64,000 bases of DNA from an uncultured bacterium. GTDB lineage: Bacteria; Omnitrophota; Omnitrophia; Omnitrophales; Abzuiibacteriaceae. The stretch covers positions 1-64,000 of the forward strand of contig CAYLXA010000008.1 in the NCBI GenBank assembly GCA_964387845.1. The letters run 5' to 3'. A program made the position numbers and the translations under genes. The notes below the pieces were generated by a model. It did not search any database. It worked only from the letters and a program-made list of their open reading frames with translations, and was not told where the DNA came from. Of this stretch, positions 1,629-56,507 are shown one piece after another; within the stretch, counting starts at the first letter, position 1; each line of letters begins with the position of its first letter.

Positions 1629-1653
1629 CCAACCTTGATCTGCAGGGCTCGCC

Positions 1654-1923: not shown

Positions 1924-1924
1924 C

Positions 1925-2506: not shown

Positions 2507-2520
2507 TGTCCTGAACCCGA

Positions 2521-4497: not shown

Positions 4498-6604
4498 AAC
4501 CGGCACAGCCCCGGAAACCGAACGCATCCGTGCGTTTTTGATTAATCTGTCGATCCTCGTTTTCATGATCCTGTGGTCTTTTTGGATTTACCGCTACGGC
4601 ATTTACGCGTTTCCGCGGCAGGATCATTTTTCTTTCATGTTTGACCGGTCTCTTTTTCAAAACGATTGGGATTATTTTTGGCATGTCATTTCATTTTCGA
4701 AAACCCGGACCACATTTCCGGGAGATTATTATCTTTTCCGCCCTGCTACACACGGAATTCTGGCGCTCATCGATATTTTTTTCCGAAGTGATTTATATAC
4801 GGCAGGAAGAATCAGTATTTTTTGGCATGGCATCACCGCGTTTGTCCTGTATTTATTCACATCGAAATTTTCAGGCAGGATGATCGGATTTATTTTGGCG
4901 TTTGTATTCGCAACGCAATATCCGGGCCTCGAGATGGTCATTTGGCGCCATGTGAGCCCGTACATGCTCGGGCTGTGTTTTTTTACATGCGGCCTTTTGA
5001 TGATTCCGAAAATAACGGAATCTCACCGGCTTACCGCAATAGCGGCGCTGCTATTTTTAATTTCCGGATTCTTTTTTGAAAACATTATTGTTGTCATGGC
5101 AATAGCGTTCTTGATTTTCCTAATTCTAGGAACCCGCACTCAAGAAAATGCGCTTCGGAATTTCAGTTTTCAAATCATCAAAATCGCCGCTTTAGTGATT
5201 TTGGTTTATTCCGCACTTTATATTTTCGAATATTTAATGCGCCCTCCGCCGTCGTTTTTGGGCCCTGCCGATAGAAATGCGGCAACTTTTACATGGCTTG
5301 ATACGGTTTATGGTTTGTGTACGATTTCAGGCCTTTTGTTTACGGCATTTTTATTTCCGCACAAGGTTGATTTATTCTATGACTCCGAATGGTACAGGGC
5401 TTGGTGGGAATTTTTTGAAACCGGGAGTAATTTTTTCTATGGCTGGTTAGGTGTTTTCTTGGGGATTCTGTTAACCATTACATTTGTAAAAGGTGCTTTC
5501 TTTTTATTCCGCAAGCAGCAAAAAGCGATTGCCGCTATTTTTGTGTTTGTTTTTCTTTATTTCGGTGCCGTGGCGGGCGGTTTGTCGCTGGGGCGCGCAA
5601 GTTTGCGATCGGTCAGTTATATGACAAACGCGACTTATTATTATTACATGACCGGCTTTCTGCTGACGATGATCGCGGCTCTTCTCATTTTTATTTCAAA
5701 GAAATCGGAAATAGTTAAACACTTTTCGAACGGCGTTAAACAAATATTGTGGTTTCTGCTGATCTTATTTTCCACGCATCAAGTTACTTTAAGCTATGAG
5801 AGAATCCAGACAGTTTTGGGCAGCCGCTATGGTTTTGACAAGGGAGTCGCTGAAGCGACATCGGAAGTGGCAAAACGGATCCGGCAGAACGAGTTATTTT
5901 GTTATGGAGGAGCAATCGATCCATTTTTGGGAAATTACTTATTGAATGAACTTCTTTACCGAGAATCATGCATGGATAAGCAAGGCGTTCCGCTTTATGC
6001 GGTTACGGGCCCAAATCAGATTTTTTGGTTAATCAAATTCAAAGAGTCCGATGTCGGGCCTGTTTCGCTTCAGCCGGTCGAGTTGCTGGAAAACGGGCAG
6101 AAAGTAATGCTGAGCACGCGAGATTACAACGCGGAGTCCTTAGACGTGACGATGTATCCGCCCTTTAACGGCGGATTGGTAGTGGCCTATAAAAATCCGG
6201 GCAATTTTTTGCTTCTGCTCGTGAAAGAAAACACGTTTTATGCCCATCAGATGAGGGGCGGGAGATTGTCTCCGCCTTTTGTAACCCATGAGTTGAAGCC
6301 AGCCCCGCAGTATGACATTTCAATCAAGAGGGTTGGAACGGATTACGCCGTGTTCTATAATGAGAACGTTATCACCCGGCTTGAAGCCGGTTCTGGCTGG
6401 ATCGGGAAAATCGGTTTGATTGATTACGGAAGCGATTCAGGCAGACAGGCTTTTTCTGAATTAAAAGTTTCGGCTACGCCGTTACTAGGCCGAGGTTCGG
6501 ACAATATAGTGCCTGTATTCCGGTTGAGATTTCCGACCCTGCAGAATTTTCTGAAGCAAGAGCAGGGCTGGGCGGTTGCATCCAGCAGCAGAGCTGATTA
6601 TTGA
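4490..6604 (+). CDS. Large polytopic membrane protein with a C-terminal extracytoplasmic domain; function unknown, possibly a glycosyltransferase partner of the upstream TMTC-like gene
   Basis: About 11 predicted TM helices in the first 430 aa, followed by a soluble approximately 270-aa tail. The start was moved to the in-frame ATG at 4490, which overlaps the upstream stop (ATGAATAA). The track ORF begins at 4448. Confidence 0.55.
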   Translation: MNKTGTAPETERIRAFLINLSILVFMILWSFWIYRYGIYAFPRQDHFSFMFDRSLFQNDWDYFWHVISFSKTRTTFPGDYYLFRPATHGILALIDIFFRSDLYTAGRISIFWHGITAFVLYLFTSKFSGRMIGFILAFVFATQYPGLEMVIWRHVSPYMLGLCFFTCGLLMIPKITESHRLTAIAALLFLISGFFFENIIVVMAIAFLIFLILGTRTQENALRNFSFQIIKIAALVILVYSALYIFEYLMRPPPSFLGPADRNAATFTWLDTVYGLCTISGLLFTAFLFPHKVDLFYDSEWYRAWWEFFETGSNFFYGWLGVFLGILLTITFVKGAFFLFRKQQKAIAAIFVFVFLYFGAVAGGLSLGRASLRSVSYMTNATYYYYMTGFLLTMIAALLIFISKKSEIVKHFSNGVKQILWFLLILFSTHQVTLSYERIQTVLGSRYGFDKGVAEATSEVAKRIRQNELFCYGGAIDPFLGNYLLNELLYRESCMDKQGVPLYAVTGPNQIFWLIKFKESDVGPVSLQPVELLENGQKVMLSTRDYNAESLDVTMYPPFNGGLVVAYKNPGNFLLLLVKENTFYAHQMRGGRLSPPFVTHELKPAPQYDISIKRVGTDYAVFYNENVITRLEAGSGWIGKIGLIDYGSDSGRQAFSELKVSATPLLGRGSDNIVPVFRLRFPTLQNFLKQEQGWAVASSSRADY

Positions 6605-6614
6605 AGGAGCTTAA

Positions 6615-7289
6615 ATGACTTTGTCGGTAGCGAAAATACCTTTATTCGAAGGCCTTTCCAAAAGCGAATTGGAAGCAATCAAAACTTGTTTGCATGAGAA
6701 ACGCTACCAAAAAGGCGAGATCATTCTTTTGGAAGGCAATTCCTGCGAGCGTATTTTTATCGTGGAGTCAGGCCGCGTAAAAATGATCCGGACATCGCCA
6801 TCCGGCCGCGAACAAATTTTGGAAACACTATATCCGGGCGATACTTGTGCTTGCAATCCGGGGTGTCAGCAATGGGCGTGCTGCAATACTGCGGAAGCGA
6901 TGACTTCTTGCAAAGTCTGGTTTTTGTCGAAACGGGATTATGTGGAGCTGGTACAAGCCAATCCGAAAACAGCCCGCGCATTAAATCATATCTTCGCCCA
7001 ACGCCTCGCGTGTTTCAGTTCTTTAATCGAAGAAATTTCCCTGAAGGACACAAAGAAGCGTCTTATCAAATTTATTTTGGATATGTTAAACGAACAAAAA
7101 GCAAAACTTTCTGCGAAGGGAGTTTTGCAAATACCGTTTACCCGCCAGGAAATCGCCCAACGCATCGGAACCGCGCGCGAAACCGTAGCAAGGCATCTCT
7201 ACGAGCTTAAAAGAAACAAGCTTATTGATATCAAACCCAAACAAATTGCTGTCTTAGACGAGCAAAATCTCCGCAAGTTAATCGCATAA
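6615..7289 (+). CDS. Crp/Fnr-family transcriptional regulator (cNMP-binding domain plus C-terminal HTH), with an unusual Cys-rich segment
   Basis: The HTH TRQEIAQRIGTARETVARHLYELKRNKLI is typical of the Crp/Fnr family. The cNMP-binding-fold region contains CACNPGCQQWACC. It lies at the head of the nos/denitrification island. Confidence 0.8.
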   Translation: MTLSVAKIPLFEGLSKSELEAIKTCLHEKRYQKGEIILLEGNSCERIFIVESGRVKMIRTSPSGREQILETLYPGDTCACNPGCQQWACCNTAEAMTSCKVWFLSKRDYVELVQANPKTARALNHIFAQRLACFSSLIEEISLKDTKKRLIKFILDMLNEQKAKLSAKGVLQIPFTRQEIAQRIGTARETVARHLYELKRNKLIDIKPKQIAVLDEQNLRKLIA

Positions 7290-7393
7290 CTCTTTTACTA
7301 TTATAGTCTTACGATAATATTGATTATCAGTGATGAGGGTCACGGATTTTTCCGCCTCCCAGCCCGTAATATAAAGCGGGAGAAAGTGAAAAT

Positions 7394-7945
7394 ATGCGGA
7401 AAACATCGACCTTATCACAAAGCCGCATTCTATCCTTGCTCGAAAGAGACAGAAGAAGTACGGCCCGCGTTCTTGACTGCGTGAGCGACATTCTGATCGG
7501 CTTGCGTTATGAAGACAGGCCGTGGTTTGATAAAAATATCATCAAGAAAGCAAAAAAAGTCCTTCAGCTTCTCCACGCGGAACTATTCCACCACTGCTGC
7601 GTTGAGGAAAAAATTGTTTTTCCGTTTGCCAAATCTCATCTGCCCAAGCTCGAATCCGTCATTCGTTTTCTGGAGGCCGAGCATCAGGATTTTAAAAAAC
7701 ATGTGCGGCATCTGAATCATTTATTCAATCATCCCTCTAACATGTCGGCAGGCGAGGAAAGCGGCGCGTGGATTCAAAAAGTAAACGAGGCGGGCAATTA
7801 TTTCATCTATTTGCTGCGGCGTCATTTGGAAGTTCGGCATGAGAACATCGACAAGGCCATTGATCAGGAATTGCGTGAGGATGAAAAAAGGGAGCTTGCG
7901 AATCGGTTAAAGGGTTTGGCGCCGGAGGCAGCGAGACGTTCCTAA
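7394..7945 (+). CDS. Hemerythrin-like (HHE cation-binding) domain protein
   Basis: Repeated H...HxxxE-like spacing (LHAELFHHCCVEEKI, LEAEHQDFKKHVRHL, LRRHLEVRHENID). 183 aa. Confidence 0.45.
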   Translation: MRKTSTLSQSRILSLLERDRRSTARVLDCVSDILIGLRYEDRPWFDKNIIKKAKKVLQLLHAELFHHCCVEEKIVFPFAKSHLPKLESVIRFLEAEHQDFKKHVRHLNHLFNHPSNMSAGEESGAWIQKVNEAGNYFIYLLRRHLEVRHENIDKAIDQELREDEKRELANRLKGLAPEAARRS

Positions 7946-7965
7946 GACAGGCTCAGGGAGGCGTT

Positions 7966-8250
7966 ATGTGGAACGATAAACTTCGTCAGCATTATTGGTG
8001 GGCCGAAATCAACAGCCCGGCTGAGAAATTTCTTTATGAGCTCCGAAAAGCCGAGGACGAAGAAGATGCCGGCGTATATCTTTTGCAGCTTTATCTTAAT
8101 AATGAATCCGACCTTCATTTTTTTTCAAACAAAGACCGCCGCAGAATCTGCCAAATTTTAACATTCTTGATTCACGAAACCGAAAAGCACCGGACGATCT
8201 TGGCGCATTTGGCCGATGAGCTTGAAAAAAGGAGGGCGGGCCATGCTTAA
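7966..8250 (+). CDS. Hypothetical small protein (94 aa)
   Basis: Protein-like composition. Translationally coupled to the next small gene (ATGCTTAA overlap). Confidence 0.4.
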   Translation: MWNDKLRQHYWWAEINSPAEKFLYELRKAEDEEDAGVYLLQLYLNNESDLHFFSNKDRRRICQILTFLIHETEKHRTILAHLADELEKRRAGHA

Positions 8251-8488
8251 TAATCAGGTTAAAGACTTATGGCTGATTCGGTTCCGTAAAATCTATGATC
8301 TAGAGCGTGATTCATTCTATTTTTACCGCAAATTAATCAACAGCAACACAGAGCTTTTGCAGGATTCAGACGCGAGAAATATCCTGCGTAAGATTATGCG
8401 CGACGAACTCAATCATGCGCGCGCAGCATTAGAATTATTAAAAATTCTAGAAAACAGAAACGCTTCCAAAGAGGGCGGAGGCGCTTAG
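8243..8488 (+). CDS. Hypothetical small protein (81 aa)
   Basis: AGGAGG SD 6 nt upstream of the ATG at 8243. The track ORF starts at 8216 in the same frame. Confidence 0.4.
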   Translation: MLNNQVKDLWLIRFRKIYDLERDSFYFYRKLINSNTELLQDSDARNILRKIMRDELNHARAALELLKILENRNASKEGGGA

Positions 8489-8502
8489 AAACGAGGTGCG
8501 CC

Positions 8503-9216
8503 ATGCGCGGAACAGATATTTTTGAGTCTTATGTGGCGTGTCAAATTAAATCGCTGGAAAATACGGGCAAACAAAAAGCTGGAGTTGCAAGCCCGTTTGT
8601 AACCATATCCCGCCAAGCGGGAGCAGGCGGTATCACCATCGGAGAAAAGCTGGTCGCTTACTTATGGGAAAATGACAGGGGAAGCGGCTGCCCGTGGGCA
8701 ATTTTTGATAAGACTTTGGTAAACCGGGTTCTGGAGGAGCATCATCTGCCCGAGAAAATTTCACAGTACATGCCCGAAAGCAAAGTTTCGCAGGTGGATG
8801 ACATTATGGAAGAGCTTTTCAACCTGCATCCTTCCGAGTGGACATTAATCCATAAAACCAGCGAAACTATTTTGAAATTAGCACAAATGGGCAATGTCAT
8901 TCTGGTCGGGCGCGGCTCGAACATTGTCGCACGAAGCCTTGAAAACGGATTTCATGTCCGGCTGATTGCTTCACCGGAAAAAAGAATCGAGCATTTGCAG
9001 GAATATTACAAGCTTGACCGTAAAAGAGCGCTGAAATTTATGGAAAAGGAAGATAAAGGAAGGCGTGATTATGTGAAAGAATATTTTGATAAAAATATCG
9101 ATGATCCGCTCTTGTATGATTTGGTGATTAACACGGACAGGATCTCTTATGACCAAGCGGCTAAACTGATTGCCCGCGAAGTGCTTGAGATCAAAAAACG
9201 GATCTCATCACAGTAA
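8503..9216 (+). CDS. Cytidylate kinase-like family protein (PF13189-like)
   Basis: N-terminal ISRQAGAGGITIGEKLVAYL is the degenerate P-loop characteristic of the cytidylate-kinase-like family. 237 aa. Confidence 0.55.
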   Translation: MRGTDIFESYVACQIKSLENTGKQKAGVASPFVTISRQAGAGGITIGEKLVAYLWENDRGSGCPWAIFDKTLVNRVLEEHHLPEKISQYMPESKVSQVDDIMEELFNLHPSEWTLIHKTSETILKLAQMGNVILVGRGSNIVARSLENGFHVRLIASPEKRIEHLQEYYKLDRKRALKFMEKEDKGRRDYVKEYFDKNIDDPLLYDLVINTDRISYDQAAKLIAREVLEIKKRISSQ

Positions 9217-9231
9217 TTTGGCAGGGTTGAT

Positions 9232-10617
9232 ATGAAACAGCGGAATTTGCCGTCAACTTTTGGCAAGCACAGGCAGGTTATCTTATTTTTGATTGCGATA
9301 GCGGCTGCTTTTGCAGCTTATTTATTTTTACCTGCCGGCTGCCCCGAGCCGGCGCGCAGAGCTTCCGTTATTTTCATTGTCGCGGCTTTTCTGTGGGCAT
9401 TTGAGATTATTCCCCTCCACGCAACCGCGATTGTGGTTGTGTTGGCGTCTATTTTTCTACTTGCTTGGCCGGGCGGCGTTCTTGAAATGGATAACAACGG
9501 CTATCAAATTTTTCTAGCTCCGTTTGCCAATCCCATCATCATGTTGTTTTTCGGAGGATTTGTATTAGCCGCGGCTTTGCATAAGCACCACATTGACGAA
9601 TGGCTTGTCCAAAAACTGATCCGCATATTCGGAACAAAACCTTTTTGGCTTTTGCTTGGATTTGTCATGACGACCGGATTTGTTTCCATGTGGATCTCCA
9701 ATACGGCAACAACGGCAATGATGCTGACAATGATCACCCCAATTCTTGCGGATGAGAGGAATAGTCCAAAATTTAAAACCGCTTTGGCGCTGGCCGCTGC
9801 ATTTGCGGCCAATGTGGGCGGAATCGCAACGCCCGTCGGGACGCCGCCGAATGCAATTGCGCTCGGTATTTTATCTGACCGCAGCATTCATGTCAGTTTC
9901 CTTCAATGGATGATGATGGCATTTCCGCTCGCGGTATTTTTATTGGCGGCAACCAGTGTCACATTATTCTGGATGTTTGGAAGAAACCAAAAAAATGTTT
10001 TTATTCCGGAAATACAAGGTGCCGAGATCAATTTGAAATCAAAAAGCGCAGCTGTTATCGGCCTTTTGACTATTATTTTGTGGTTAACTTCAACTTGGCA
10101 CCATATCCCGGAATCTGTTGTAGCGCTTTTGGCCGTTGGTTTGCTGTCAAGCTTTCAATTAATTGATCACGACGATTTAAAAGGAATCGGGTGGGATATT
10201 CTGATTTTGATGTGGGGCGGTTTGGCGCTGGGCCGGGCGATTGAAATAAGCGGGCTGGGGAAATGGCTTGTCACGATGCCGGTATTTTCAGCGGAAGGGC
10301 ATATCTTAATAATCGCTTTCTCGCTTTTGACTGTTTTTCTTTCCATCGTGATGAGCAATACCGCAACGGCGGGCCTGGTGATTCCGATTGCGATGAGCGT
10401 CGGCACGGCCGACCCGGTTGTTTTGGCGGTTGTCATTGCTTTGTCGGGCTCTTTCGACATGATTTTGCCTGTTTCGACACCGCCGAATGCGATGATTTTT
10501 TCCACAAAAGCAGTTCGTTCGGTAGACATGCTGAAAGCAGGCGCTGCTGTCAGTGTAATCGCGCTTATTTTATTGCTCGCGGGCTATCCATTTTTTATCG
10601 AGAGGTTTTTGTCATGA
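9232..10617 (+). CDS. Anion permease of the ArsB/NhaD superfamily (SLC13/DASS-like)
   Basis: Duplicated TPPN hairpin motifs (ANVGGIATPVGTPPNAIALG and MILPVSTPPNAMIFST). 461 aa, polytopic. Confidence 0.65.
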   Translation: MKQRNLPSTFGKHRQVILFLIAIAAAFAAYLFLPAGCPEPARRASVIFIVAAFLWAFEIIPLHATAIVVVLASIFLLAWPGGVLEMDNNGYQIFLAPFANPIIMLFFGGFVLAAALHKHHIDEWLVQKLIRIFGTKPFWLLLGFVMTTGFVSMWISNTATTAMMLTMITPILADERNSPKFKTALALAAAFAANVGGIATPVGTPPNAIALGILSDRSIHVSFLQWMMMAFPLAVFLLAATSVTLFWMFGRNQKNVFIPEIQGAEINLKSKSAAVIGLLTIILWLTSTWHHIPESVVALLAVGLLSSFQLIDHDDLKGIGWDILILMWGGLALGRAIEISGLGKWLVTMPVFSAEGHILIIAFSLLTVFLSIVMSNTATAGLVIPIAMSVGTADPVVLAVVIALSGSFDMILPVSTPPNAMIFSTKAVRSVDMLKAGAAVSVIALILLLAGYPFFIERFLS

Positions 10618-11297
10618 AAAATTTAAATCAACTCCTAATTTTTTTTCTTTGTTTATCTGCTGCATTAACGATACCCGTGTATGCAGAAGATGATTTTCAA
10701 TATTGGTCTCGCTATTCCGTGAAAGCAATCGATACAAAATACATCGATTTTGTGAATTTCTGGGATTTGCGCTTTATGGAAGACTCATCGCGTCTCCGCC
10801 TGTGGTTTACAAGCCAAAAATTGCAAATCAATCCTGTTGAGTGGTTTGGCTTTGTGATTGCGCATACTTATCTCGAAAATTCTGCGGTCAATTCACAGAC
10901 CAAAACACGCGAATTTGTGTCTCAGCACAGGCTTGAATTGGAAGCCAATCCAAAATGGAAAGTTTCGCCTTGGCTGACGGTCAAAAACAGGAACCGGGTT
11001 GAATTCAGATGGATTGAAGACAAAGGTTCGGATAACACGCGAACGCGGCACATGGTTGAATTGGAGTTTCCGGTTAAAAAAAATCCGGTTGTGAAATCTA
11101 TTTACACAAACAGCGAAATTTTTGTCGATTTTAACCGCCATACAATTAATGAAAACCGCGCCATTCCGATCGGAATCAATTTTAATCTTTATAAAAAATC
11201 AACCTTCAGCATTTTTTACATGATTCAATCCCAAAAAGGCGCCCGGGATTGGTCATCGAATCAAATATTGGGAACCCAGGTGAGTTTAAATTTTTAA
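10614..11297 (+). CDS. Secreted / outer-membrane-type protein (DUF2490-like), function unknown
   Basis: ATG at 10614 overlaps the upstream stop (ATGA). The signal peptide MKNLNQLLIFFLCLSAALTIPVYA is followed by an aromatic-rich, beta-rich sequence. The track ORF 10263.. is an antisense-frame extension. Confidence 0.5.
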   Translation: MKNLNQLLIFFLCLSAALTIPVYAEDDFQYWSRYSVKAIDTKYIDFVNFWDLRFMEDSSRLRLWFTSQKLQINPVEWFGFVIAHTYLENSAVNSQTKTREFVSQHRLELEANPKWKVSPWLTVKNRNRVEFRWIEDKGSDNTRTRHMVELEFPVKKNPVVKSIYTNSEIFVDFNRHTINENRAIPIGINFNLYKKSTFSIFYMIQSQKGARDWSSNQILGTQVSLNF

Positions 11298-11308
11298 AGG
11301 GAATCATC

Positions 11309-12439
11309 ATGAGTTCAGGTTTTGATTTTTCAAAACGGCCGTTTTTGGTGATTTGGGAAACCACCAAGGCTTGCGGCCTCGCGTGCGTTCATTGCCGTGC
11401 GGAAGCCGATCCGAATCCAGATCCAGATGAACTGAATCATGAGGAAGCGCTCAAATTAATCCGTGATGTCAAAGAAATGGGAACGCCGATTTTGGTTTTT
11501 AGCGGCGGCGATCCGCTGCGCCGGAAAGACCTTCCTGATCTAATTCGCTACGCAAAATCTTTGAAAATCAGGACGGGCGCCATTCCGGCTGTGACGCCCG
11601 ATCTCACAAAAGAAAAAATTGTAGAGTTAGCTGAAAGCGGATTGTCGCAGATCGCTTTCAGTCTGGATGCGGCGGATCCGGTTGAGCATGATTCATTCCG
11701 CCGGACAACCGGTGTATTTGACAGGACCATTGAAAGCGTCAAGATTGCAAACGAGTTAGGTTTGAATGTTCAAATTAATTCTCTCGTGAATGTTCACAAC
11801 CAAGAGTCGCTTGATAAATTGATCAAGCTGATAGAAACGCTCAACATCGTGTTCTGGGAAGTATTTTTCCTGGTCCCGACCGGACGCGGAAAAGATTTGC
11901 CGCTTTTAACTGCTCAGAAATTTGAAGAAGCATTTCAGAAAATTTACGAACTAAACAAGCGCGTCCGCTTTGTAATTAAAGTAACGGAAGCACCGCACTA
12001 CCGCAGGTTTTATATCGAGCAGGAAATGAAAGCTGAAGAAGTTGACTTGCTTTCTATCAAAGACAGCCGCGTCGAACTTCCCGCGTTCTTAAGACGCAAA
12101 AGCGGGCCCAATGCCAGTATCGGCCACGCTCCGGACGGCGTTAATTCCGGAAAAGGGTTTATTTTTATTTCCAAAACCGGCGAAGTGATGCCGAGCGGAT
12201 TTTTGCCGATTCCGGCCGGAAATATCAGAAAAAAGCCGCTCTCCGATATTTACCAAAATTCGCCGCTTTTAATTGAATTGAGGGATGCCTCCAAGTTAAA
12301 GGGAAGGTGCGGGGCGTGTGAATATAAATACATTTGCGGCGGCTCGCGTTCGCGCGCTTATGCGCTTACGGGCGATTATTTAGCCGAAGATCCGAGCTGC
12401 GTTTACCAACCTGAAATCCTGAATTTAAAATATGCTTGA
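11309..12439 (+). CDS. Radical SAM enzyme with C-terminal SPASM domain (NirJ/AhbC/AhbD-like)
   Basis: Cx3Cx2C in PFLVIWETTKACGLACVHCRAEAD. A C-terminal Cys cluster CGACEYKYICGG...DPSC is typical of SPASM. ATG at 11309; the track ORF starts at TTG 11249. Confidence 0.8.
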   Translation: MSSGFDFSKRPFLVIWETTKACGLACVHCRAEADPNPDPDELNHEEALKLIRDVKEMGTPILVFSGGDPLRRKDLPDLIRYAKSLKIRTGAIPAVTPDLTKEKIVELAESGLSQIAFSLDAADPVEHDSFRRTTGVFDRTIESVKIANELGLNVQINSLVNVHNQESLDKLIKLIETLNIVFWEVFFLVPTGRGKDLPLLTAQKFEEAFQKIYELNKRVRFVIKVTEAPHYRRFYIEQEMKAEEVDLLSIKDSRVELPAFLRRKSGPNASIGHAPDGVNSGKGFIFISKTGEVMPSGFLPIPAGNIRKKPLSDIYQNSPLLIELRDASKLKGRCGACEYKYICGGSRSRAYALTGDYLAEDPSCVYQPEILNLKYA

Positions 12440-12497
12440 CACCCTCTTGAAATAATGGATACTATAGTCCATAATTAATATGGACGATAAAGTCCAT
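12436..12497. promoter_or_regulatory. Candidate promoter (TTGACA at 12436) with two 18-bp palindromic operators ATGGAT-ACTATA-GTCCAT and ATGGAC-GATAAA-GTCCAT upstream of rrf2-nosZ
   Basis: Perfect or near-perfect 6-6-6 inverted repeats at 12455-12472 and 12480-12497. The first overlaps the -10 region. The AGGAGG RBS and the rrf2 ATG follow. Confidence 0.45.
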
Positions 12498-12519
12498 AAT
12501 AGAGCATGGAGGAATTAAC

Positions 12520-12957
12520 ATGTTTCAATTGTATTCGAAAGGTTGCGAATATGCCATTAAAGCACTGTCTCAAATGGAAGATCCCAATCAAAATTACAGC
12601 GCGAAAAACATTTGCCGGCGCGCGCGAATTCCGGAGTCTTTCTCAAGAAAGGTATTCCAGTCTCTTGTTCACGGCAGATTCCTCGAAGCCGTTCCAGGCC
12701 CCGGCGGCGGTTATCGTTTGCGGCAGAACCTTAAGGAAGTTTCCATTCTGGATATTATCCGCGCGGTAGACGGCGCCAAGGCATTTGACCATTGCATCAT
12801 GGGATTTGCAAGATGCAGCGAAAAAACTCCCTGCCTGCTTCATGATAATTGGCTGAAGGCGAAAAAACATTTGGTTAACGAACTAAGGGAAAGAAAACTA
12901 AAAGATCTAATCAGCATGACGCAGAAAAAAAGGAGGAATTCCAATGGTAAATTATAA
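12520..12957 (+). CDS. Rrf2-family transcriptional regulator (NsrR/IscR-like, three-Cys cluster)
   Basis: N-terminal wHTH MFQLYSKGCEYAIKALSQM...ILDIIRAVDG. Cys ligand cluster HCIMGFARCSEKTPCLLH. It overlaps the nosZ start by 14 nt. Confidence 0.8.
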   Translation: MFQLYSKGCEYAIKALSQMEDPNQNYSAKNICRRARIPESFSRKVFQSLVHGRFLEAVPGPGGGYRLRQNLKEVSILDIIRAVDGAKAFDHCIMGFARCSEKTPCLLHDNWLKAKKHLVNELRERKLKDLISMTQKKRRNSNGKL

Positions 12958-14989
12958 AAGATTATTTTTTCTCAGCATCATCGGGGTTGTTACGGTTTTT
13001 GCATTAACGGGTTCATTTGGAATCGGCGGGTTCGAAACGAAATCTCTCAATGCGCAATCGGTAGAACTGCCCAAAGAAACAATGGATGCGATTCGTGAGC
13101 GTGGCTTAAGCCCGGATGATGTTACCGCTGCTGTTTCTACCTTTATGCCGACCGGTAAATATGATGATTATGTGATGTTTGCCTCAGGCGGTCATAGCGG
13201 ACAAGTATTTGCCATCGGCATGCCTTCTATGAGGCTTTTACGTACTATTGCTGCTTTTACACCTGAGCCGTGGCAAGGATACGGCATTGGTGTTAAAGAG
13301 AACGCACTAGTGACAGCCGCAAAAGGATCTACTGATCGTCAACTTACCTGGGCCGACACACATCATCCGGCTCTCAGCGAAACAAACGGAGATTATGACG
13401 GACAGTTTTTATTTATTGGTGATAAAGCAAACGGACGGCTCTGTGTGATTGATCTTCGGGATTTTGAAACCAAGCAGATCGTGCAAAATCCGGTTGTGAG
13501 CAGCAATCATGGCGCAGCTTTTGTTCCGTCCAACACCGAATATGTATTGGAAGGCTCTCAATTTGCAATGCCGCTCGGCGGAGGCTACGCGCCGATTGAA
13601 GATTATCAAAAATCATACCGCGGTTTAGCGACATTCTGGAAATTTAACCGTGAGAAGGGACGCCTTGAAATAGAAAATTCTTTCGGAGTGGAATTACCGC
13701 CTTATTGGCAGGACCTTGCTGATTTTGGCAAAGCCGAAAGTGACGGCTGGGCGTTCATCAATTCCTTTAATACCGAAATGTCAACCGGAGGTGTTGAAGA
13801 CGGAAATCCGCCTTTTGAGGCCGGCACCTCCCAGCGCGATATGGATTATCTCCATATTATTAATTGGAAACAGGCGGAGAAGACAGTTAAGGAAGGCCGC
13901 GCAAAAATGATCAATGGTTTGCGCGTGATTCCGCTAGATGTGGCGATATCGGACGGCATTCTTTTCTTCGCGGCCGAACCCAAAAGCCCGCATGGTGTGG
14001 ATGTGACGCCGAGCGGAAAGCATATTGTGGTTGCCGGAAAACTGGATCCTCACGTCACGATTTATGGAATTGATTTAATTAAAACAGCTATTGAGAAAAA
14101 GGATTTTGAAGGAAAAGATCCTTTTGGTGTTCCGATTTTAAGATTCGACGCTGTCAAAAAAGCGCAGGTCGAACTCGGCCTTGGTCCTTTACACACTCAA
14201 TTTGACAACAAAGGCTATGCGTATACGAGTCTTTTTCTCGATAGTGCAGTGGCCAGATGGACTTTGGGTGACGATAAGTTTAAGGCGCCCGAAAAACCGT
14301 GGACGTTGGTATCAAAAACGCCGGTCCACTACAATATCGGACACCTTGCAGCCGCTGAAGGTGACACGGTAAATCCCGACGGTAAATATTTAGTTGCGCT
14401 TAATAAGTGGTCCGTTGACCGATTTTTGAACACCGGACCTCTGCTGGCTCAAAACCTTCAATTAGTGGATATTAGCCGTCCCGGCGATTCGTTGAAAATT
14501 CTCTACGATATGCCCATTGGCAACGGCGAGCCGCACTATGCTCAAATTATTAAAGCGGATAAATTAAGAACATGGGAGGTGTATCCCGAAGTTGGATGGA
14601 ATGCCGAAGAGCAGAAGAAAAGCACGGTAGCGGCCATGGAAGGAAAGGTGGTCAGAAGTCCGGGCAAGGTTGAAATTTACATGCCCGCGATCCGGAGTCA
14701 TTTTGACCCGGAGCGTGTGCGTGTCACGAAAGGGGAGAAAGTTATTTTTTACATCACCAATCTTGAACGGACACTTGATGCAACGCACGGATTCAACATT
14801 GCCGGCTACAACATTGCGGCCAGCATTGAGCCGGGCGAGACAGTAACCATTGAATTCATCGCGGACAAGGAAGGCGTATTTCCATTTTATTGCCTTGAAT
14901 TTTGCTCCGCTCTTCATTTAGAAATGGCCGGTTATTTGCTGGTCGAGCCGGTGCCTGCGGCCGTTCAGCGTGAGAAGAAAGGTAAATAA
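12944..14989 (+). CDS. nosZ: Nitrous-oxide reductase NosZ (clade II / atypical, Sec-type signal peptide)
   Basis: 681 aa. The signal peptide has no twin-arginine. Seven-bladed propeller region. C-terminal CuA cupredoxin motif FYCLEFCSALHLEMAGY. AGGAGG SD. Confidence 0.93.
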   Translation: MVNYKRLFFLSIIGVVTVFALTGSFGIGGFETKSLNAQSVELPKETMDAIRERGLSPDDVTAAVSTFMPTGKYDDYVMFASGGHSGQVFAIGMPSMRLLRTIAAFTPEPWQGYGIGVKENALVTAAKGSTDRQLTWADTHHPALSETNGDYDGQFLFIGDKANGRLCVIDLRDFETKQIVQNPVVSSNHGAAFVPSNTEYVLEGSQFAMPLGGGYAPIEDYQKSYRGLATFWKFNREKGRLEIENSFGVELPPYWQDLADFGKAESDGWAFINSFNTEMSTGGVEDGNPPFEAGTSQRDMDYLHIINWKQAEKTVKEGRAKMINGLRVIPLDVAISDGILFFAAEPKSPHGVDVTPSGKHIVVAGKLDPHVTIYGIDLIKTAIEKKDFEGKDPFGVPILRFDAVKKAQVELGLGPLHTQFDNKGYAYTSLFLDSAVARWTLGDDKFKAPEKPWTLVSKTPVHYNIGHLAAAEGDTVNPDGKYLVALNKWSVDRFLNTGPLLAQNLQLVDISRPGDSLKILYDMPIGNGEPHYAQIIKADKLRTWEVYPEVGWNAEEQKKSTVAAMEGKVVRSPGKVEIYMPAIRSHFDPERVRVTKGEKVIFYITNLERTLDATHGFNIAGYNIAASIEPGETVTIEFIADKEGVFPFYCLEFCSALHLEMAGYLLVEPVPAAVQREKKGK

Positions 14990-14997
14990 AAGATAAA

Positions 14998-17895
14998 ATG
15001 ACCGAGCAATCCCGAGGTCGAGAGTGGTTATTAAAAGTTTTGTTCCTTACGGGTATTGCGGCAATTCTTTTTTCATTTGCCTTTCCATACTGGCGAATCA
15101 AAGTGGTGGCGCCGCAGTACCCTAAAGGGCTCTCGATGGTTATCTATATCAACCGTTTGTCGGGCGATATTCAAGAACTGAACACGCTCAATCACTACAT
15201 TGGCATGCGGCATGTAGATGATGCCGCAAAGACTGAGCGAAAATTTGCGATTCCCGGTGTTGCCGTAGTTGTTCTTTCGTTATTTTCTGCAATGTTTTAC
15301 AAGGGGCGTTTTCGTTTCTTGCTGATTCTTCCTGCGGTTTTATTTCCGATTTTTTTCGCCGCCGATCTTTATTATTGGCTCCGTGATTCGGGCCTCAATT
15401 TGGATCCCAAGGCACCTTTGAATCGGTCCATCAAGCCTTTTATTCCGCCTGTATTCGGAGAAGGGAAAATTGCTCAGTTTAAAGCGTATGCACAATTTGA
15501 ATTTGGATTTTATTTGAACATGCTTTGCTCGTTTCTTTCAATTCTCGGGCTTATGTTTCAGAACAGGAGAAAAGTGGTAAGCCGGATCGTGAGTTGTATA
15601 TTCTATTTTTTATTTTTAGCACAGCCCATGCTGTATGCCGAAAATTTGGTTGTTTCCCAAGAAGGGCCGTATCGTGATCTTCAACAAGCAATCCATGCGG
15701 CGTCAAACGGCGATACAGTGATTGTCAAGGGAGGGGTTTACGCCGGGCCTTTTGTAATTGATAAATCTCTTCATTTAATCGGAGAGGATTTTCCGGTTCT
15801 GGATGGACAGGAAAAAGGAACCGTCGTTACGGTTAATGCTGATGACGTGCAGATCAAAGGATTTACCATTCGGGGAAGCGGCGACATTCTTTCGCAGGAT
15901 CAAGCCGGATTGTTGGTATCGGGAGCCCGCGCGCGTATCGAACAAAATCGATTTGAAAATGTGCTGTTTGGCATTGATCTGAAACGCGCACCGGAGAGCG
16001 TTATTCGTAAAAATTATTTGGAAGGAAAAATACTGGATGTCGCAAGACGCGGCGATTTGATCCGGATTTGGTATAGCGATAACGTCACAATCGAGGACAA
16101 TGTTACCATTGGCGGACGGGATGCCGTCTTATGGTTTTCAAAAAATCTGATCATTCGCGGAAATGAATTTTTAAAAGGCCGATACGGCCTTCATTTTATG
16201 TATTGCAACGATTCCGTGGTTGAAAACAACCGGCTTCAGAACAACTCGGTCGGTATTTACTTGATGTATAGCGCCCACATTCGGCTGACGCATAATCAAA
16301 TCATTCACAATCGAGGGCCCAGCGGATTCGGAGTGGGCTTCAAAGATATGGAACATTCATCGATTGAAGAAAATATTGTGGCGGATAACCGTGTGGGTTT
16401 TTTCATCGATCACGGGTCCGGGCACTATGAAAAAAATCTGATCGCATTAAACGATATCGGCATTCAAATGCTGCCAACAGCTTTGGATAATTCCCTCACA
16501 AAAAATAGTTTTATCGATAACGGTGAGCAAGTTTCGATTGACGGCATGGGCGGTTTCATGAAGAACCAATGGCAGGGGAATTTTTGGAGCGATTACCGGG
16601 GTTACGATCGAGATCATGACGGAGCGGGCGATATGGCCTATCAGGCTTTTAAGTTTTTTGAACGGTTAACGGATCGTTACGGTGCGCTCAAATTTTTCGC
16701 ATTAAATCCTTCAGTTCAAGCGCTCGATTTTGCCAATACTGCTTTTCCTATTTTTTCTCCAAAATCAAAATTTACGGATCCGTTGCCGTCCATCCATCCG
16801 ATTCTGCCGGCTTTTCCGGGTATGGAGCGAGAAATTTCTTGGCCGTTTCTTTTTGCTTCATTCTTTTTATTTCTTCCTCTACTTCTGATGCGCCGCATGC
16901 CGGCCTTCAACTTGTGTGCAGGCAGCGCGCAATTAATGTCAATAAAATCATCCTCGCTTGAATCTCAGGCAATTGATCCAATCCCAAACTTTATACCGAG
17001 TCGAAAGGCGGCAATCCATGTAAGCGGCCTCAACAAAAATTTCAGAAAACAAAACGCGCTGAAAGACCTGAATTTTGATATTCAAAAAGGCGAAACGGTG
17101 GTCTTGTGGGGCTCGAATGGTGCCGGGAAAACCACAGCGCTTCGCTGTCTTTTGGGGTCGGTCTCATTTGAGGGAAACGTATTTGTTTTAGGACACAATG
17201 TTAAAACAAACGGAAAGTTGGTGCGTTCGCATATCGGGTATGTTCCGCAGGAAATCAGGCTCTACATTGACCAAACCGTTCTCGAAATCGTTTCTTTTTA
17301 CGCGGCACTGAAAAGAGTTCCTCGGGCAAGAGTCAAAGAGCTGCTCAAGCGATGGGGGCTTTCGGAATTTGAAAACCGGTTCGTCAATCATCTTTCGGGA
17401 GGCATGAAGCAGAAGCTTGCGTTGGTGATCGCCTTACTGTCTGACCCTGAAATCCTTTTTTTGGATGAACCTACAAGCAATCTCGATCTGAAAGCGCGCC
17501 ACGAATTTTTAAGTTTTCTCACAGAGCTTAAACTCGAAGGCAAGACCATCCTGCTTTGTTCGCATTTAACGACAGAAGTGTGGCGTTTGGCGGATCGCGT
17601 GATCGTGCTCGACCAGGGCGAGAAAATCTCGGAAGGCCTGCCGGAGTCTGTCAGGCATTTTCTCGGCGGATCGACAGTTTTATTTTTGGCAGTTTCGGAG
17701 AAAGACGAAAAAAGAGCGCTTGAACTCTTAAAATTTAAAAATTTTCAAGCGGAGTTGAATCATGCCGGCATTATGATTCATGTATCGCCGGACAAAAAAA
17801 TGGAACCCTTTCGTGTTCTACAGGAGGCCGGCATTTCAGTCCTTGATTTTGAAGTGGGAAATGAAACTAATCAGAAGAGAAGCGGGCATTCATGA
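14998..17895 (+). CDS. nosDF: Single 965-aa ORF fusing a NosB-like polytopic membrane domain (aa 1-185), NosD (periplasmic parallel beta-helix Cu-insertion protein, aa about 186-630) and NosF (ABC ATPase, aa about 647-965)
   Basis: No stop codon across 2.9 kb. The internal Met at 15553 is followed by the signal-like MFQNRRKVVSRIVSCIFYFLFLAQPMLYA-EN. PbH1 repeats (NNRLQNNSVGIYLMYSAHIRLTHNQIIHN). A TM segment FLFASFFLFLPLLLM lies before the Walker A GSNGAGKTT, the ABC signature LSGGMKQKL and Walker B ILFLDEPTSNLD. Confidence 0.8.
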   Translation: MTEQSRGREWLLKVLFLTGIAAILFSFAFPYWRIKVVAPQYPKGLSMVIYINRLSGDIQELNTLNHYIGMRHVDDAAKTERKFAIPGVAVVVLSLFSAMFYKGRFRFLLILPAVLFPIFFAADLYYWLRDSGLNLDPKAPLNRSIKPFIPPVFGEGKIAQFKAYAQFEFGFYLNMLCSFLSILGLMFQNRRKVVSRIVSCIFYFLFLAQPMLYAENLVVSQEGPYRDLQQAIHAASNGDTVIVKGGVYAGPFVIDKSLHLIGEDFPVLDGQEKGTVVTVNADDVQIKGFTIRGSGDILSQDQAGLLVSGARARIEQNRFENVLFGIDLKRAPESVIRKNYLEGKILDVARRGDLIRIWYSDNVTIEDNVTIGGRDAVLWFSKNLIIRGNEFLKGRYGLHFMYCNDSVVENNRLQNNSVGIYLMYSAHIRLTHNQIIHNRGPSGFGVGFKDMEHSSIEENIVADNRVGFFIDHGSGHYEKNLIALNDIGIQMLPTALDNSLTKNSFIDNGEQVSIDGMGGFMKNQWQGNFWSDYRGYDRDHDGAGDMAYQAFKFFERLTDRYGALKFFALNPSVQALDFANTAFPIFSPKSKFTDPLPSIHPILPAFPGMEREISWPFLFASFFLFLPLLLMRRMPAFNLCAGSAQLMSIKSSSLESQAIDPIPNFIPSRKAAIHVSGLNKNFRKQNALKDLNFDIQKGETVVLWGSNGAGKTTALRCLLGSVSFEGNVFVLGHNVKTNGKLVRSHIGYVPQEIRLYIDQTVLEIVSFYAALKRVPRARVKELLKRWGLSEFENRFVNHLSGGMKQKLALVIALLSDPEILFLDEPTSNLDLKARHEFLSFLTELKLEGKTILLCSHLTTEVWRLADRVIVLDQGEKISEGLPESVRHFLGGSTVLFLAVSEKDEKRALELLKFKNFQAELNHAGIMIHVSPDKKMEPFRVLQEAGISVLDFEVGNETNQKRSGHS

Positions 17896-18713
17896 ATATT
17901 TTAATTATCTCGGGAAAAGAAATTCGTGACGCGATGCGAAATAAGTGGTTTCTTTTAATTTCGCTTATTTTTGCGGGCCTTTCGCTTGCGTTCAGCATTT
18001 TGGGCGTCTCAGGCCTCGGCAATTTGGGTATTTCCGGTTTTGGGCGTACGACGGCAAGCCTGATTAATTTGGTGCTTCTCATTGTTCCGTTGATGGGGCT
18101 TCTTCTGGGCTCGATCAGCCTTTCCAGTGAAAAAGAGCACGGAACCTTGCGCGCTCTTTTGGCTCAACCGGTAACACTCGGAGAGATTTTTATCGGAAAA
18201 TATTTTGGCGCAGTCGTTGCGCTTTCGGCTACTTTGTGTGTTGGTTTTGGGTTGAGCGGAATTGTAATCGGAATTTATGGCGGTTGGGAGCAGCTCAGCA
18301 GTTATTTGGGGCTTTTGGGTTATACCATTCTTTTAGCAATTGTGTATTTGGGAATCGGATTTTTTATTTCGGTTTTTTGCCTCAAGATGATCACAGCCAT
18401 CGGTGTTTCGCTTTTTCTTTGGTTCCTGTTTGTTTTTCTGAGCGATCTTGGGATTATGGGCACCACCGTTGCTCTCAATCTGTCATCGAGAGATTTATTG
18501 TGGATTGTTTTAAGCAATCCTGCGCAGTCTTTCAAAGCCGTGGTGATTGGAATTTTGCAGGGCGACCTTGATATTTTAGGCACACTCGGGCGCTACGCCG
18601 TCGATGTACTGGGCGATCAATTTATATGGGCGTTGAGCGGGATTTTATTTATCTGGGCCGCGGCCCCGTTTTTATTGTCACTTTTATTTTTTAAGAAAAG
18701 ATACGGTGAATAA
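17892..18713 (+). CDS. nosY: NosY, ABC-2 type permease of the NosDFY complex
   Basis: 273 aa with six TM helices. ATGA overlap with the NosF stop. It sits between nosF and nosL. Confidence 0.8.
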   Translation: MNILIISGKEIRDAMRNKWFLLISLIFAGLSLAFSILGVSGLGNLGISGFGRTTASLINLVLLIVPLMGLLLGSISLSSEKEHGTLRALLAQPVTLGEIFIGKYFGAVVALSATLCVGFGLSGIVIGIYGGWEQLSSYLGLLGYTILLAIVYLGIGFFISVFCLKMITAIGVSLFLWFLFVFLSDLGIMGTTVALNLSSRDLLWIVLSNPAQSFKAVVIGILQGDLDILGTLGRYAVDVLGDQFIWALSGILFIWAAAPFLLSLLFFKKRYGE

Positions 18714-19174
18714 TGATTCTCCCACGGGCTGTTTATCTGATCGTCGGCATTGCAATGCTAATCGTCGGCTGTTCTCCGTCGGCAGAAACAAAACCGCCAA
18801 AAATTCGCTATGGACATGATAGCTGCGGAAATTGTCACATGATTATCTCAAGCGCGCCATTTGCGGCAAGTTTGGCGACGCGGGATGAAATGTATCACAA
18901 GTTTGATGACATCGGCTGCATGCTTCATTTTATTCAATCACGAAATGACATAGCTGAAATTTGGGTGAATGATTATGCAACACAACAGCCGATCAAAGCT
19001 CATTACGCTTTCTATATAAAAGAAGCCGATCAGCGGACGCCGATGGGGTATGGCATTTTGGCGTTTGCCACAAAGGAAAGTGCGCAAAAAATAGATAGGG
19101 CCCGCGTGCTTAGTTTTGATGATCTGTTAAAACAGTTTAATGAACCAAAAACTGAAGGAGGAGTCAATCCATGA
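18713..19174 (+). CDS. nosL: NosL copper-chaperone lipoprotein
   Basis: Lipobox LIVGC. The CGNCHM / MYHKFDDIGCMLHF segments are typical of NosL. TAATG overlap with nosY. Confidence 0.75.
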   Translation: MILPRAVYLIVGIAMLIVGCSPSAETKPPKIRYGHDSCGNCHMIISSAPFAASLATRDEMYHKFDDIGCMLHFIQSRNDIAEIWVNDYATQQPIKAHYAFYIKEADQRTPMGYGILAFATKESAQKIDRARVLSFDDLLKQFNEPKTEGGVNP

Positions 19175-19884
19175 AAAAAATAATCGTTTTAATTTGTTTG
19201 ATTGCGGCAGTGGTTATCGTTTGCCCGTTTTCTGTTTACGCCGGCGGAACTTTGAGTGGAAAAGTTAATTTTGTAGGAACCGCTCCGGCCCCAAAACCAG
19301 TTAATTTTGGCCCGGAAAAGCAGTGTGCCATTGCGCATGGCGATAAACCGCCTATGGATGAAACCATTGTGGTGAATTCAAATAATACGTTGAAAGATGC
19401 GCTCGTTTACGTCAAGGAAGGCGCAACCGGCCAATTCGAAGCGCCGAAGACACAGGTCTTGATTGATCAAAACGGATGCATTTTTACTCCGCATGTTTCG
19501 GTGGCCATGGTGGGCCAGGAGGTAGTGTTTAAAAATAGCGACACACTTTTACATAATGTGCGTACGGTATCGACAGTTAATAAGGTTTTTAACATTGCGC
19601 AGCCGATCCAGAATATGACCACCAAGAAAACTTTCGCGTCTCCGGAAATCGGAATTCAGCTCAAATGCGACGTGCATTTCTGGATGCTGGCATATTTGCA
19701 TGTTGTCAACAATCCGTATTATGCAGTCACAGGTGAGGACGGTTCGTTTACGATTCAGGATCTTCCGGCCGGTACTTATACCGTCGAAGTTTGGCACGGA
19801 AAGTTGGGAGCACAAACTCAATCCATTACAATAGCCGAAGGCGAATCAAAGTCCGCTGATTTTTCTCTCGAGAAAAGAGACTAA
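19171..19884 (+). CDS. Secreted type-1 copper cupredoxin (amicyanin/plastocyanin-like ligand spacing) with a C-terminal beta-sandwich extension; candidate electron donor to NosZ
   Basis: Signal peptide. His (TLLHNV), then about 45 aa later C-x2-H-x2-M (KCDVHFWM). C-terminal GSFTIQDLPAGTYTVEVWHG carboxypeptidase-regulatory-like fold. ATGA overlap with nosL. Confidence 0.6.
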   Translation: MKKIIVLICLIAAVVIVCPFSVYAGGTLSGKVNFVGTAPAPKPVNFGPEKQCAIAHGDKPPMDETIVVNSNNTLKDALVYVKEGATGQFEAPKTQVLIDQNGCIFTPHVSVAMVGQEVVFKNSDTLLHNVRTVSTVNKVFNIAQPIQNMTTKKTFASPEIGIQLKCDVHFWMLAYLHVVNNPYYAVTGEDGSFTIQDLPAGTYTVEVWHGKLGAQTQSITIAEGESKSADFSLEKRD

Positions 19885-19911
19885 CCGCTTAATAGTAAAA
19901 GGGGTTTATGC

Positions 19912-20391
19912 ATGGGAAAGATGGGTACCATTTCCGAATTTTTTGAAAAAGATCACAACAGATTGGATAATTTGTTTAAACAATTTCAAGCAAATAAATC
20001 TCAAGATTTTAATTTTGCGAAAAGTTGTTTTAAAGAATTTATGTTTGGACTCAAGCGCCACATTGTTTGGGAAGAAGAAATGCTTTTCCCTATCTTCGAT
20101 GAAAAAACAAGTATGAAGGATTCGGGGCCGACTGCCGTGATGCGTTTCGAGCATGATTTAATCAAAAAGGAACTGGACAATATTCACAAAAAAGTAAAAG
20201 CAGGCCAAACTAATACTGAAAATGAAGAAGCGTCTCTTCTTGAAATTTTAGTGCAGCACAACAGCAAAGAAGAAGGCATTCTTTATCCGGCCATGGATCA
20301 AATGCTCGCACAATCTGAAGTGAGCGGAGTTCTTGAAAGAATAAAAAAAACGTTAGCAGAACAGCAGCCATCTTGCTGTGACCTGCCTTAA
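19912..20391 (+). CDS. Hemerythrin-like HHE domain protein
   Basis: DHNRLDNLF, LKRHIVWEEEMLFP and FEHDLIKKEL give the H...HxxxE pattern. C-terminal CCDLP. Confidence 0.65.
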   Translation: MGKMGTISEFFEKDHNRLDNLFKQFQANKSQDFNFAKSCFKEFMFGLKRHIVWEEEMLFPIFDEKTSMKDSGPTAVMRFEHDLIKKELDNIHKKVKAGQTNTENEEASLLEILVQHNSKEEGILYPAMDQMLAQSEVSGVLERIKKTLAEQQPSCCDLP

Positions 20392-20403
20392 AAGGAGACT
20401 ATT

Positions 20404-22281: not shown

Positions 22282-22303
22282 TCCGGATCAGGACTCATTC
22301 AAT

Positions 22304-23554: not shown

Positions 23555-23628
23555 TGCCAGTGACGGGCGTCACATAATTTTTAAGGGATTTTCCGTAGAT
23601 TACGCAAAACGAAACGGAGCAATTCTGC

Positions 23629-56505: not shown

Positions 56506-56507
56506 CC

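Follow-up and report, generated by a model that had tools for sequence, protein, structure and literature searches.

A palindromic operator predicted to serve a separate clade of Rrf2 regulators in front of nosZ and other nitrogen-oxide reduction genes of uncultured bacteria

NsrR, known from Proteobacteria, Bacillus, Streptomyces, Neisseria and Magnetospirillum, is a nitric oxide (NO)-sensing [4Fe-4S] repressor of the Rrf2 family, and RsrR is a redox-sensing [2Fe-2S] Rrf2 regulator of Streptomyces venezuelae. The regulation of clade II nosZ, which encodes a nitrous oxide (N2O) reductase, is poorly understood outside a few Proteobacteria and Campylobacterota, and the clade II nos clusters, to our knowledge, lack nosR. 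Among the members of NsrR regulons are hcp, dnrN/ytfE, nnrS, norB and nirK, and in Bacillus subtilis the hmp promoter is overlapped by a tandem of NsrR sites (PMC1274295). The NsrR of Magnetospirillum is a direct repressor of nap, nir, nor and nosZ, whose repression is lifted by NO (PMC11014258). Genes of the rrf2 type beside clade II nosZ, in clusters without nosR, have been noted in Bacteroidetes scaffolds, with no operator, regulon or mechanism described (PMC6264515). The same gene order, rrf2-nosZ, is found in the stretch studied here, positions 1 to 64,000 of contig CAYLXA010000008.1 from an uncultured Omnitrophota bacterium (assembly GCA_964387845.1), hereafter the window; no Bacteroidetes protein was among the named top matches of a search with its Rrf2 protein. 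Two 18-bp palindromes, O1 and O2, precede the rrf2 gene. We propose, with a probability of roughly 0.7, that an iron-sulfur (Fe-S) Rrf2 protein represses the rrf2-nos genes from O1 and O2 and that NO releases it.

The two palindromes, already reported in the first-pass annotation, were read directly from the sequence and are the only such sites in the 64 kb (Table 1). The region from 12436 to 12522 is laid out as TTGACA-ccctc-TTGAAA-ta-ATGGATACTATAGTCCAT-aattaat-ATGGACGATAAAGTCCAT-aatagagcat-GGAGG-aattaac-ATG. O1 and O2 are direct repeats as well as palindromes, with a start-to-start distance of 25 bp. Both had been described as inverted repeats of the form 6-6-6, which holds for O2, whose 6-bp arms are perfect and can be extended to 10 bp at 90% complementarity, whereas the arms of O1 are complementary at only five of six positions, the innermost pair being T/G. 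The two sites had also been placed on the same face of the helix; this is wrong, as 25 bp corresponds to about 2.4 turns of B-DNA and hence to an offset of about 137 degrees. With at most one mismatch allowed, the pattern ATGGAY-N6-GTCCAT matched O1 and O2 and nothing else in the window, giving four strand-matches compared to 0.43 expected, a number that was reached in none of 100 shuffles. A weight matrix built from sites of related loci gave the scores listed in Table 1, while the next best position in the window scored 9.8 bits and the best of 50 shuffles 19.4 bits.

The palindromes lie over the predicted promoter of rrf2. The earlier statement that O1 overlaps the −10 element of a TTGACA promoter was borne out by the promoter scan, which listed TTGACA-18-TACTAT with the −10 hexamer inside O1, both hexamers being consensus matches only. 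The TTGACA hexamer contains the TGA stop codon of the upstream radical-SAM gene. The same scan offered an alternative pair, TTGAAA and CATAAT, the latter at the right edge of O1. Whichever promoter is used, both palindromes would cover core promoter elements or the predicted start region. As had been annotated, the rrf2 start codon follows O2 by 22 nt and rrf2 overlaps nosZ; the coordinates and family models gave an overlap of 14 nt (rrf2 stop codon at 12955-12957, nosZ ATG at 12944). A predicted RNA hairpin, GAGCAUG...CAUGUUU (12500-12525), would enclose the ribosome-binding site (RBS) of rrf2 and pair with its start codon, and together with the O2 stem its predicted energy is −15.1 kcal/mol. 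This hairpin is probably fortuitous, because the region is unconserved in relatives.

Homologues of the Rrf2 protein (38-89% identity) were gathered by protein search, look-ups of exact proteins, a metagenome scan (36 loci) and a genome scan (54 loci). The genome scan covered the GTDB species representatives, which do not include the source genome (best match 53%), and looked for Rrf2 relatives rather than for the motif pattern, since a single-site pattern scan of 596 Gb gives too many chance matches. The loci, numbered below with an L, are phylogenetically related, some are duplicates, and the open reading frame (ORF) calls in them are approximate. A palindrome was found 20-145 bp before the rrf2 start in at least 24 non-redundant metagenome loci and in about 45 of the 54 genome loci. 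The sites share the consensus RTGGAY-N6-RTCCAY, flanked by A/T-rich DNA, and all 25 training sites have T2, G3, G4, A5, T14 and C15. With a weight matrix trained on the metagenome and window sites, 70 sites in the 740 kb of genome loci scored 20 bits or more, compared to none in composition-preserving shuffles.

An alignment of the window with its closest relatives, L005, L001, L002 and L040, showed near-invariance from TTGACA through O2, the alternative hexamer TTGAAA and O2 itself included, while the upstream DNA and the RBS region had diverged. O1 was identical in L001, L002 and L005 despite different downstream genes: nosZ lies behind rrf2 in the window, in L005 (Rrf2 identity 89%) and in L001 (80%), and the copper nitrite reductase gene nirK in L002 (66%; TIGR02376 319.8 bits, cut-off 296.3). 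In L040 (81% over residues 1-43), the dual operator is followed by a 92-aa ORF and then by rrf2. L003 (64%) has the single site ATGGATATAATAGTCCAT with TATAAT in its spacer, and behind its rrf2 gene a porin, a Rieske/cytochrome b module and a multihaem cytochrome are encoded. A single palindrome before rrf2 is also what the more distant relatives retain. In the orthologous rrf2-nosZ promoters the palindrome was conserved throughout, as all nine such loci found (L001, L005, L031, L033, L036, L038, L086, L088 and L091) carry it.

The position of the sites was conserved as well. At 33 of 109 non-redundant sites, an exact TTGACA precedes the site core by 17-20 nt, which indicates that the operator has been held over the −10 element in many lineages. 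Tandem sites were spaced by 24 bp in 10 pairs and by 25 bp in 5 pairs, the exceptions being two pairs at 73 bp. As the spacing of 24-25 bp recurs in 15 independent pairs, the tandem arrangement is a recurrent design, found for example before narG in metagenome-assembled genomes (MAGs) of Hydrogenedentota.

The genes directly behind operator promoters in the relatives are nosZ-nosDFYL, nirK, hcp, hemerythrin, nnrS and nasC-like molybdoenzyme genes, together with a set of qNOR, nirK, porin and nrfHA genes, a module of gltD-like, Rieske and cytochrome b genes, and a TIGR04053 radical-SAM gene. Cytochrome c genes and narG stand behind the operator in 12 genome loci, where another tandem pair of sites frequently separates rrf2 from narG. 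Sites also occur away from the rrf2 promoter: L029:466 precedes nnrS-qNOR at 4.4 kb from rrf2, L013:685 sits in the gap shared by rrf2 and a divergent RIC/YtfE gene (TIGR03652 225 bits, cut-off 204.7), L013:1376 and L013:1400 precede a cytochrome c gene, and L019 has three sites within a divergent intergenic region. In a count that relied on a crude gene caller and a limited reference set, 31 of 116 operator-adjacent genes (27%) were nitrogen-oxide genes, compared to 35 of 540 other genes (6.5%) in the same loci (odds ratio 5.3, Fisher P = 5e-9), so that the expected association of the motif with nitrogen-oxide genes was upheld in related DNA. The suggestion of further sites before nnrS, the hemerythrin genes and cox fared less evenly: the window has none, whereas relatives carry them directly before nnrS and hemerythrin. 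Judged from gene content, the Rrf2 clade of uncultured bacteria from the Omnitrophota, the Hydrogenedentota and their relatives sits ahead of genes for reducing nitrate, nitrite, NO and N2O.

Two observations on these predicted regulons may be added. L029 holds a compact nitrogen-oxide island (466-4110 and 4866-9819) with a first operator before nnrS-qNOR and a second before rrf2 and genes for a porin, a hemerythrin, a PAS-GGDEF protein and a NirK-cytochrome c fusion; the diguanylate cyclase within this predicted regulon hints at a link to c-di-GMP signalling. A porin of the Alginate_exp family repeatedly comes first behind rrf2 or inside operator-controlled operons (L003 at 6401-7738, L023, L026, L029, L048, L049, L063 and L081), and it may be a nitrogen-oxide or anion channel.

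The protein encoded by rrf2 belongs to the Rrf2 family (Pfam PF02082 94.6 bits, cut-off 30, 7e-27; TIGR00738 91.1 bits, cut-off 73.3) and fell below the cut-off of every named equivalog model. The scores were 64.9 and 37.7 bits for the IscR models TIGR02010 and NF008110 (cut-offs 207.55 and 275), 62.8 for the SUF regulator model (110.65), 38.5 for the RirA model (193) and 30.4 for the NsrR model NF008240 (182). The best matches in a PDB profile search were the IscR-like 7zpn, RsrR (6y45 and 6hsd) and IscR (4hf0), with NsrR (5n07) weaker at E = 1.9e-5. Judged from these comparisons, the protein is not an orthologue of NsrR, IscR, RsrR or RirA and is assigned to a separate Rrf2 clade, which is recognisable by the N-terminus YSKGCEY and the motif C-X6-C-X5-C-X2-H. 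The earlier label of an NsrR-like, three-cysteine regulator thus stood in part: the three cysteines and the content of the regulon agree with it, whereas orthology to NsrR does not hold.

The three cysteines of the Fe-S subgroup of Rrf2 proteins are present as C92-X6-C99-X5-C105 and were invariant in 69 clade members, as were C9, C32 and H108, with E10 nearly so. We infer from the three-cysteine motif that the protein carries a cluster. In the profile alignment, E10 is matched to Glu8 of RsrR, C9 has no counterpart in IscR, and H108 occupies the position of the IscR ligand His107. In Streptomyces coelicolor NsrR (ScNsrR), the fourth cluster ligand is Asp8 from the partner subunit (PMC5411485); by way of the alignment to RsrR Glu8, the nearly invariant E10 and the invariant C9 lie at or near that position. 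The fourth ligand of the predicted cluster could be E10, C9 or H108.

Three kinds of evidence connect the palindromes with this protein. The site and rrf2 co-occur across about 90 loci whose neighbouring genes otherwise differ, the site keeps its position over the −10 element, and the recognition helix changes along with the motif. The helix PEAYARKTFQ goes with sites of the form ATGGAT..ATCCAT, PESF(S/T)RKVFQ with sites ending in ..GTCCAT, and P(E/I)HS(T/A)RKxLQ with TAGA/TCTA cores. This covariation is suggestive of a link to Rrf2 rather than statistical, because the groups are related by descent. On the strength of all three, we consider it very likely that O1 and O2 are operators bound by the Rrf2 protein encoded just downstream.

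Compared with NsrR, the predicted system shares the Rrf2 fold, three clustered cysteines, a palindromic operator that overlaps the promoter, and tandem sites; hcp, RIC, nnrS, qNOR and nirK, the sort of genes found in NsrR regulons, stand behind operators in the relatives. The half-sites are alike, ATGyAT for NsrR and ATGGAY here, but the NsrR consensus gATGyAT-N5-ATrCATc (PMC1274295) differs from ours, which has an N6 spacer and a G at arm position 4. Further differences from NsrR are the additional invariant residues C9, C32 and H108 and a regulon centred on the respiratory reductases nar, nos and nrf. IscR (PDB 4hf0, 4hf1) is the best named NCBIfam model after the superfamily model; it likewise has a histidine three residues after the third cysteine and is autoregulated through palindromic sites over its own promoter. 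In contrast, its cysteines are spaced C-X5-C-X5-C, its motif is different, its model is scored far below cut-off by our protein, and no isc or suf genes adjoin the rrf2 genes of the roughly 90 loci. RsrR is among the best PDB matches (5.5e-12), with an N-terminal helix of equal length and a ligand, Glu8, that aligns with E10, whereas its ligand His12 is replaced by Lys14 and its regulon is different.

In the scheme that we propose, one Rrf2 dimer would most likely sit on each 18-bp palindrome, with occupancy of O1 covering the −10 element and that of O2 covering the predicted start. An operator in such a place is typical of repression by occlusion. Since the sites cover these elements, the bound protein would shut out RNA polymerase and so repress rrf2 itself along with nosZ, which overlaps it translationally, and nosDFYL, and we regard a repressor function as likely. 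The fixed spacing of 24-25 bp suggests that the two dimers are packed side by side, on different faces of the helix. Solved Rrf2-DNA complexes span 23-29 bp (PMC9338935), and dimers 25 bp apart would abut, their wings meeting in the A/T-rich junction AATTAAT. NO would damage or nitrosylate the cluster, upon which the repressor would be released and the genes switched on. NO is the signal that we favour, at slightly better than even odds, because the regulon resembles those of NsrR, extended to respiratory reductases as in Magnetospirillum. The first-pass annotation had suggested NO- or redox-responsive repression of nosZ by the linked Rrf2 protein; the comparative evidence supports the regulator, and the signal is argued from the content of the regulon.

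Several points weigh against this scheme. All the evidence is computational and the relatives are all uncultured organisms. The sequences behind the covariation and the counts of sites are related to one another and do not represent independent events. The −35 and −10 assignments are consensus matches in a phylum whose promoters are uncharacterised. As the window has no other operator, control there would be limited to genes co-transcribed from the rrf2 promoter, and regulation of nnrS, hemerythrin and cox would need read-through; a weak terminator-like hairpin lies at 22128-22146, in the gap of 269 bp before nnrS. No hmp gene, the most conserved NsrR target, was seen behind operators in the related loci. 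The protein also scores nearer to IscR (64.9 bits) and the SUF regulator (62.8) than to NsrR (30.4), and its best profile matches are 7zpn, RsrR and IscR, so the signal could differ. The same operators and repressor might then respond to oxygen or redox state, as RsrR does, or to Fe-S or iron status, as IscR and RirA do. H108 and E10 at the positions of IscR His107 and RsrR Glu8 fit this, as do the many targets rich in haem, Fe-S or copper, such as narG, Rieske/cytochrome b and the haem-pathway radical-SAM gene. However, in about 90 loci the operator was not seen to precede any isc, suf or iron-uptake gene, and its targets consist specifically of enzymes acting on nitrogen oxides and of genes for NO stress (hcp, RIC, nnrS and qNOR). 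A repressor released by oxygen would also make little physiological sense, as it would derepress anaerobic respiration in air, which makes oxygen unlikely as the main signal. We give this family of alternative signals a limited but real chance.

The other explanations change the part played by the protein or remove it altogether. IscR and Magnetospirillum NsrR activate some promoters (PMC11014258), so Rrf2 bound at the sites could activate the nos operon or regulate it in both directions, but the sites overlap the −10 element and the predicted start instead of lying upstream of −35, and this position is kept in most relatives; we therefore think activation improbable. Even less probable is that the palindromes are bound by another factor and that the proximity of rrf2 is incidental. 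One candidate is the Crp/Fnr-family regulator encoded at 6615-7289, 5 kb upstream and adjoining a hemerythrin gene, as such regulators govern denitrification in many bacteria (PMC1274295). The palindrome nevertheless differs from the FNR/DNR/HcpR box TTGAY-N4-RTCAA, tracks rrf2 through about 90 loci and co-varies with its recognition helix, and a search for FNR-type boxes found none near the nos promoter and no enrichment in the window (13 compared to 11.6 expected). Finally, the palindromes could be RNA or DNA hairpins, either terminating transcription of the upstream radical-SAM gene or forming a 5' stem-loop that stabilises the RNA. O2 folds as RNA with −9.6 kcal/mol (z = −5.5) and O1 with −5.9 kcal/mol, and a terminator scan flags the O2 palindrome on the minus strand. 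Yet hairpin folding is trivial for any palindrome, no T-run follows either hairpin on the plus strand, O1 lies over the −10 element upstream of the predicted start, and the relatives conserve the identity of the bases TGGA/TCCA and not mere pairing, the outer positions often being unpaired, as in GTGGAC...GTCCAA. This explanation is hardly credible beside repression by the linked Rrf2 protein.

Table 1. Predicted promoter elements, operators and genes of the rrf2-nos region of the window
Feature	Position	Strand	Basis
TIGR04053 radical-SAM/SPASM (AhbD/NirJ-like) gene, upstream of rrf2	11249-12439	+	family model
−35 hexamer TTGACA	12436-12441	+	sequence and promoter scan; kept in close relatives (alignment)
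Alternative −35-like TTGAAA, partner CATAAT at 12470-12475, 17-nt spacer	12447-12452	+	promoter scan
Putative operator O1, ATGGATACTATAGTCCAT (ATGGAT and GTCCAT around ACTATA), overlapping −10	12455-12472	.	weight matrix, 34.3 bits
Predicted −10 TACTAT within O1 spacer, 18 nt from TTGACA	12460-12465	+	consensus match
Putative operator O2, ATGGACGATAAAGTCCAT (ATGGAC and GTCCAT around GATAAA), over predicted start and early transcribed region	12480-12497	.	weight matrix, 33.4 bits
RBS of rrf2, GGAGG	12508-12512	+	sequence
Rrf2-family regulator, 145 aa, YSKGCEY N-terminus, C92-X6-C99-X5-C105-X2-H108	12520-12957	+	family models
NosZ, Sec-dependent (clade II)	12944-14989	+	TIGR04246, 820 bits (cut-off 625)
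NosD-NosF fusion	14998-17895	+	domain matches
NosY-type ABC-2 permease	17892-18713	+	domain match
NosL	18713-19174	+	domain match
CarboxypepD_reg-domain protein, hemerythrin, B12-binding radical-SAM protein	19171-21999	+	domain matches

The genes behind the predicted operator run on in the same direction (Table 1). Besides overlapping rrf2, nosZ has its own GGAGG at 12932-12936, and the NosZ N-terminus is a hydrophobic signal or anchor. The gene for the NosD-NosF fusion is probably part of the rrf2-nosZ transcript, since the ORFs abut or overlap. This ORF of 965 aa, in which NosF is the ABC ATPase, begins with about 220 aa of N-terminal extension lacking any domain match; the fusion also occurs in L005, L033 and L036, and L001 encodes the N-terminal part as a separate ORF of 189 aa. 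As the gaps between genes are short, the operon may extend beyond nosL to the genes for the CarboxypepD_reg-domain protein, the hemerythrin and the B12-binding radical-SAM protein, and the weight-matrix and promoter scans found no operator and no clear promoter between these genes. After the last of them comes the gap of 269 bp and then, on the same strand, genes for NnrS, COX2 and a COX1-COX3 fusion of 790 aa (22268-26648).

Clade II nos clusters usually have nosB, nosG, nosH and cytochrome c genes. In the window, these seem to be absent from the nos cluster (12944-19174), judged from the Pfam and NCBIfam matches of the listed ORFs, which leaves the electron route to NosZ unclear. The CarboxypepD_reg gene comes after nosL, both in the window (19171-19884) and in other nos clusters of Omnitrophota (L084, L088 and L091), and in L002 it comes after nirK (7264-7947); these phyla may thus use its product as an accessory protein, so far unrecognised, of their copper nitrogen-oxide reductases. 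The TIGR04053 gene stands upstream of rrf2 in the window; in L018 (5459-6607) and L058 a gene of this family comes immediately after rrf2, under the operator, and precedes one for an amine-oxidase-type flavoprotein. This arrangement suggests that a haem-related maturation step belongs to the regulon. Genes for haem precursors are clustered at 56352-61217 (glutamyl-tRNA reductase, porphobilinogen deaminase, a uroporphyrinogen methyltransferase/synthase fusion and HemB) and would agree with a route to haem that depends on sirohaem, matching the AhbD-like gene beside the nos cluster. This HemB has its nearest named relatives in Candidatus Omnitrophica MAGs (64-71% identity), in line with a probable Omnitrophota source. 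The Crp/Fnr-family gene is followed by a second gene with a hemerythrin domain (7394-7945), and its product may be a second regulator responding to nitrogen oxides or oxygen.

The principle of an Fe-S Rrf2 protein on a palindrome is already established. What appears to be new here is one more subfamily of Rrf2 proteins, found in uncultured phyla, with a palindrome of its own and a regulon of nitrogen-oxide genes; a literature search of limited scope found no description of this clade or of its motif. The known scheme is thereby extended, not overturned. More tentatively, the Rrf2 proteins of the clade might take the role that activators of the FNR/DNR/NnrR type have in Proteobacteria, with an unusual cluster environment and possibly a novel specificity. 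That environment may comprise C9 or E10 from the partner subunit, H108 and the further invariant C32, and it could confer a signal specificity or a two-signal logic, for example NO and redox state, that has not been seen in NsrR, IscR or RsrR.

For phyla known from metagenomes only, the analysis yields the motif RTGGAY-N6-RTCCAY, a recognisable clade of regulators and a predicted regulon that reaches from nitrate to N2O, and the motif can serve as a predictor of co-regulation among the nitrogen-oxide genes of MAGs. Clade II nosZ is the main biological sink of N2O, a greenhouse gas, in many environments, and the Rrf2 protein described here is a testable candidate regulator of the clade II N2O reductase, for which the protein and a 65-bp probe would be enough for an in vitro test.

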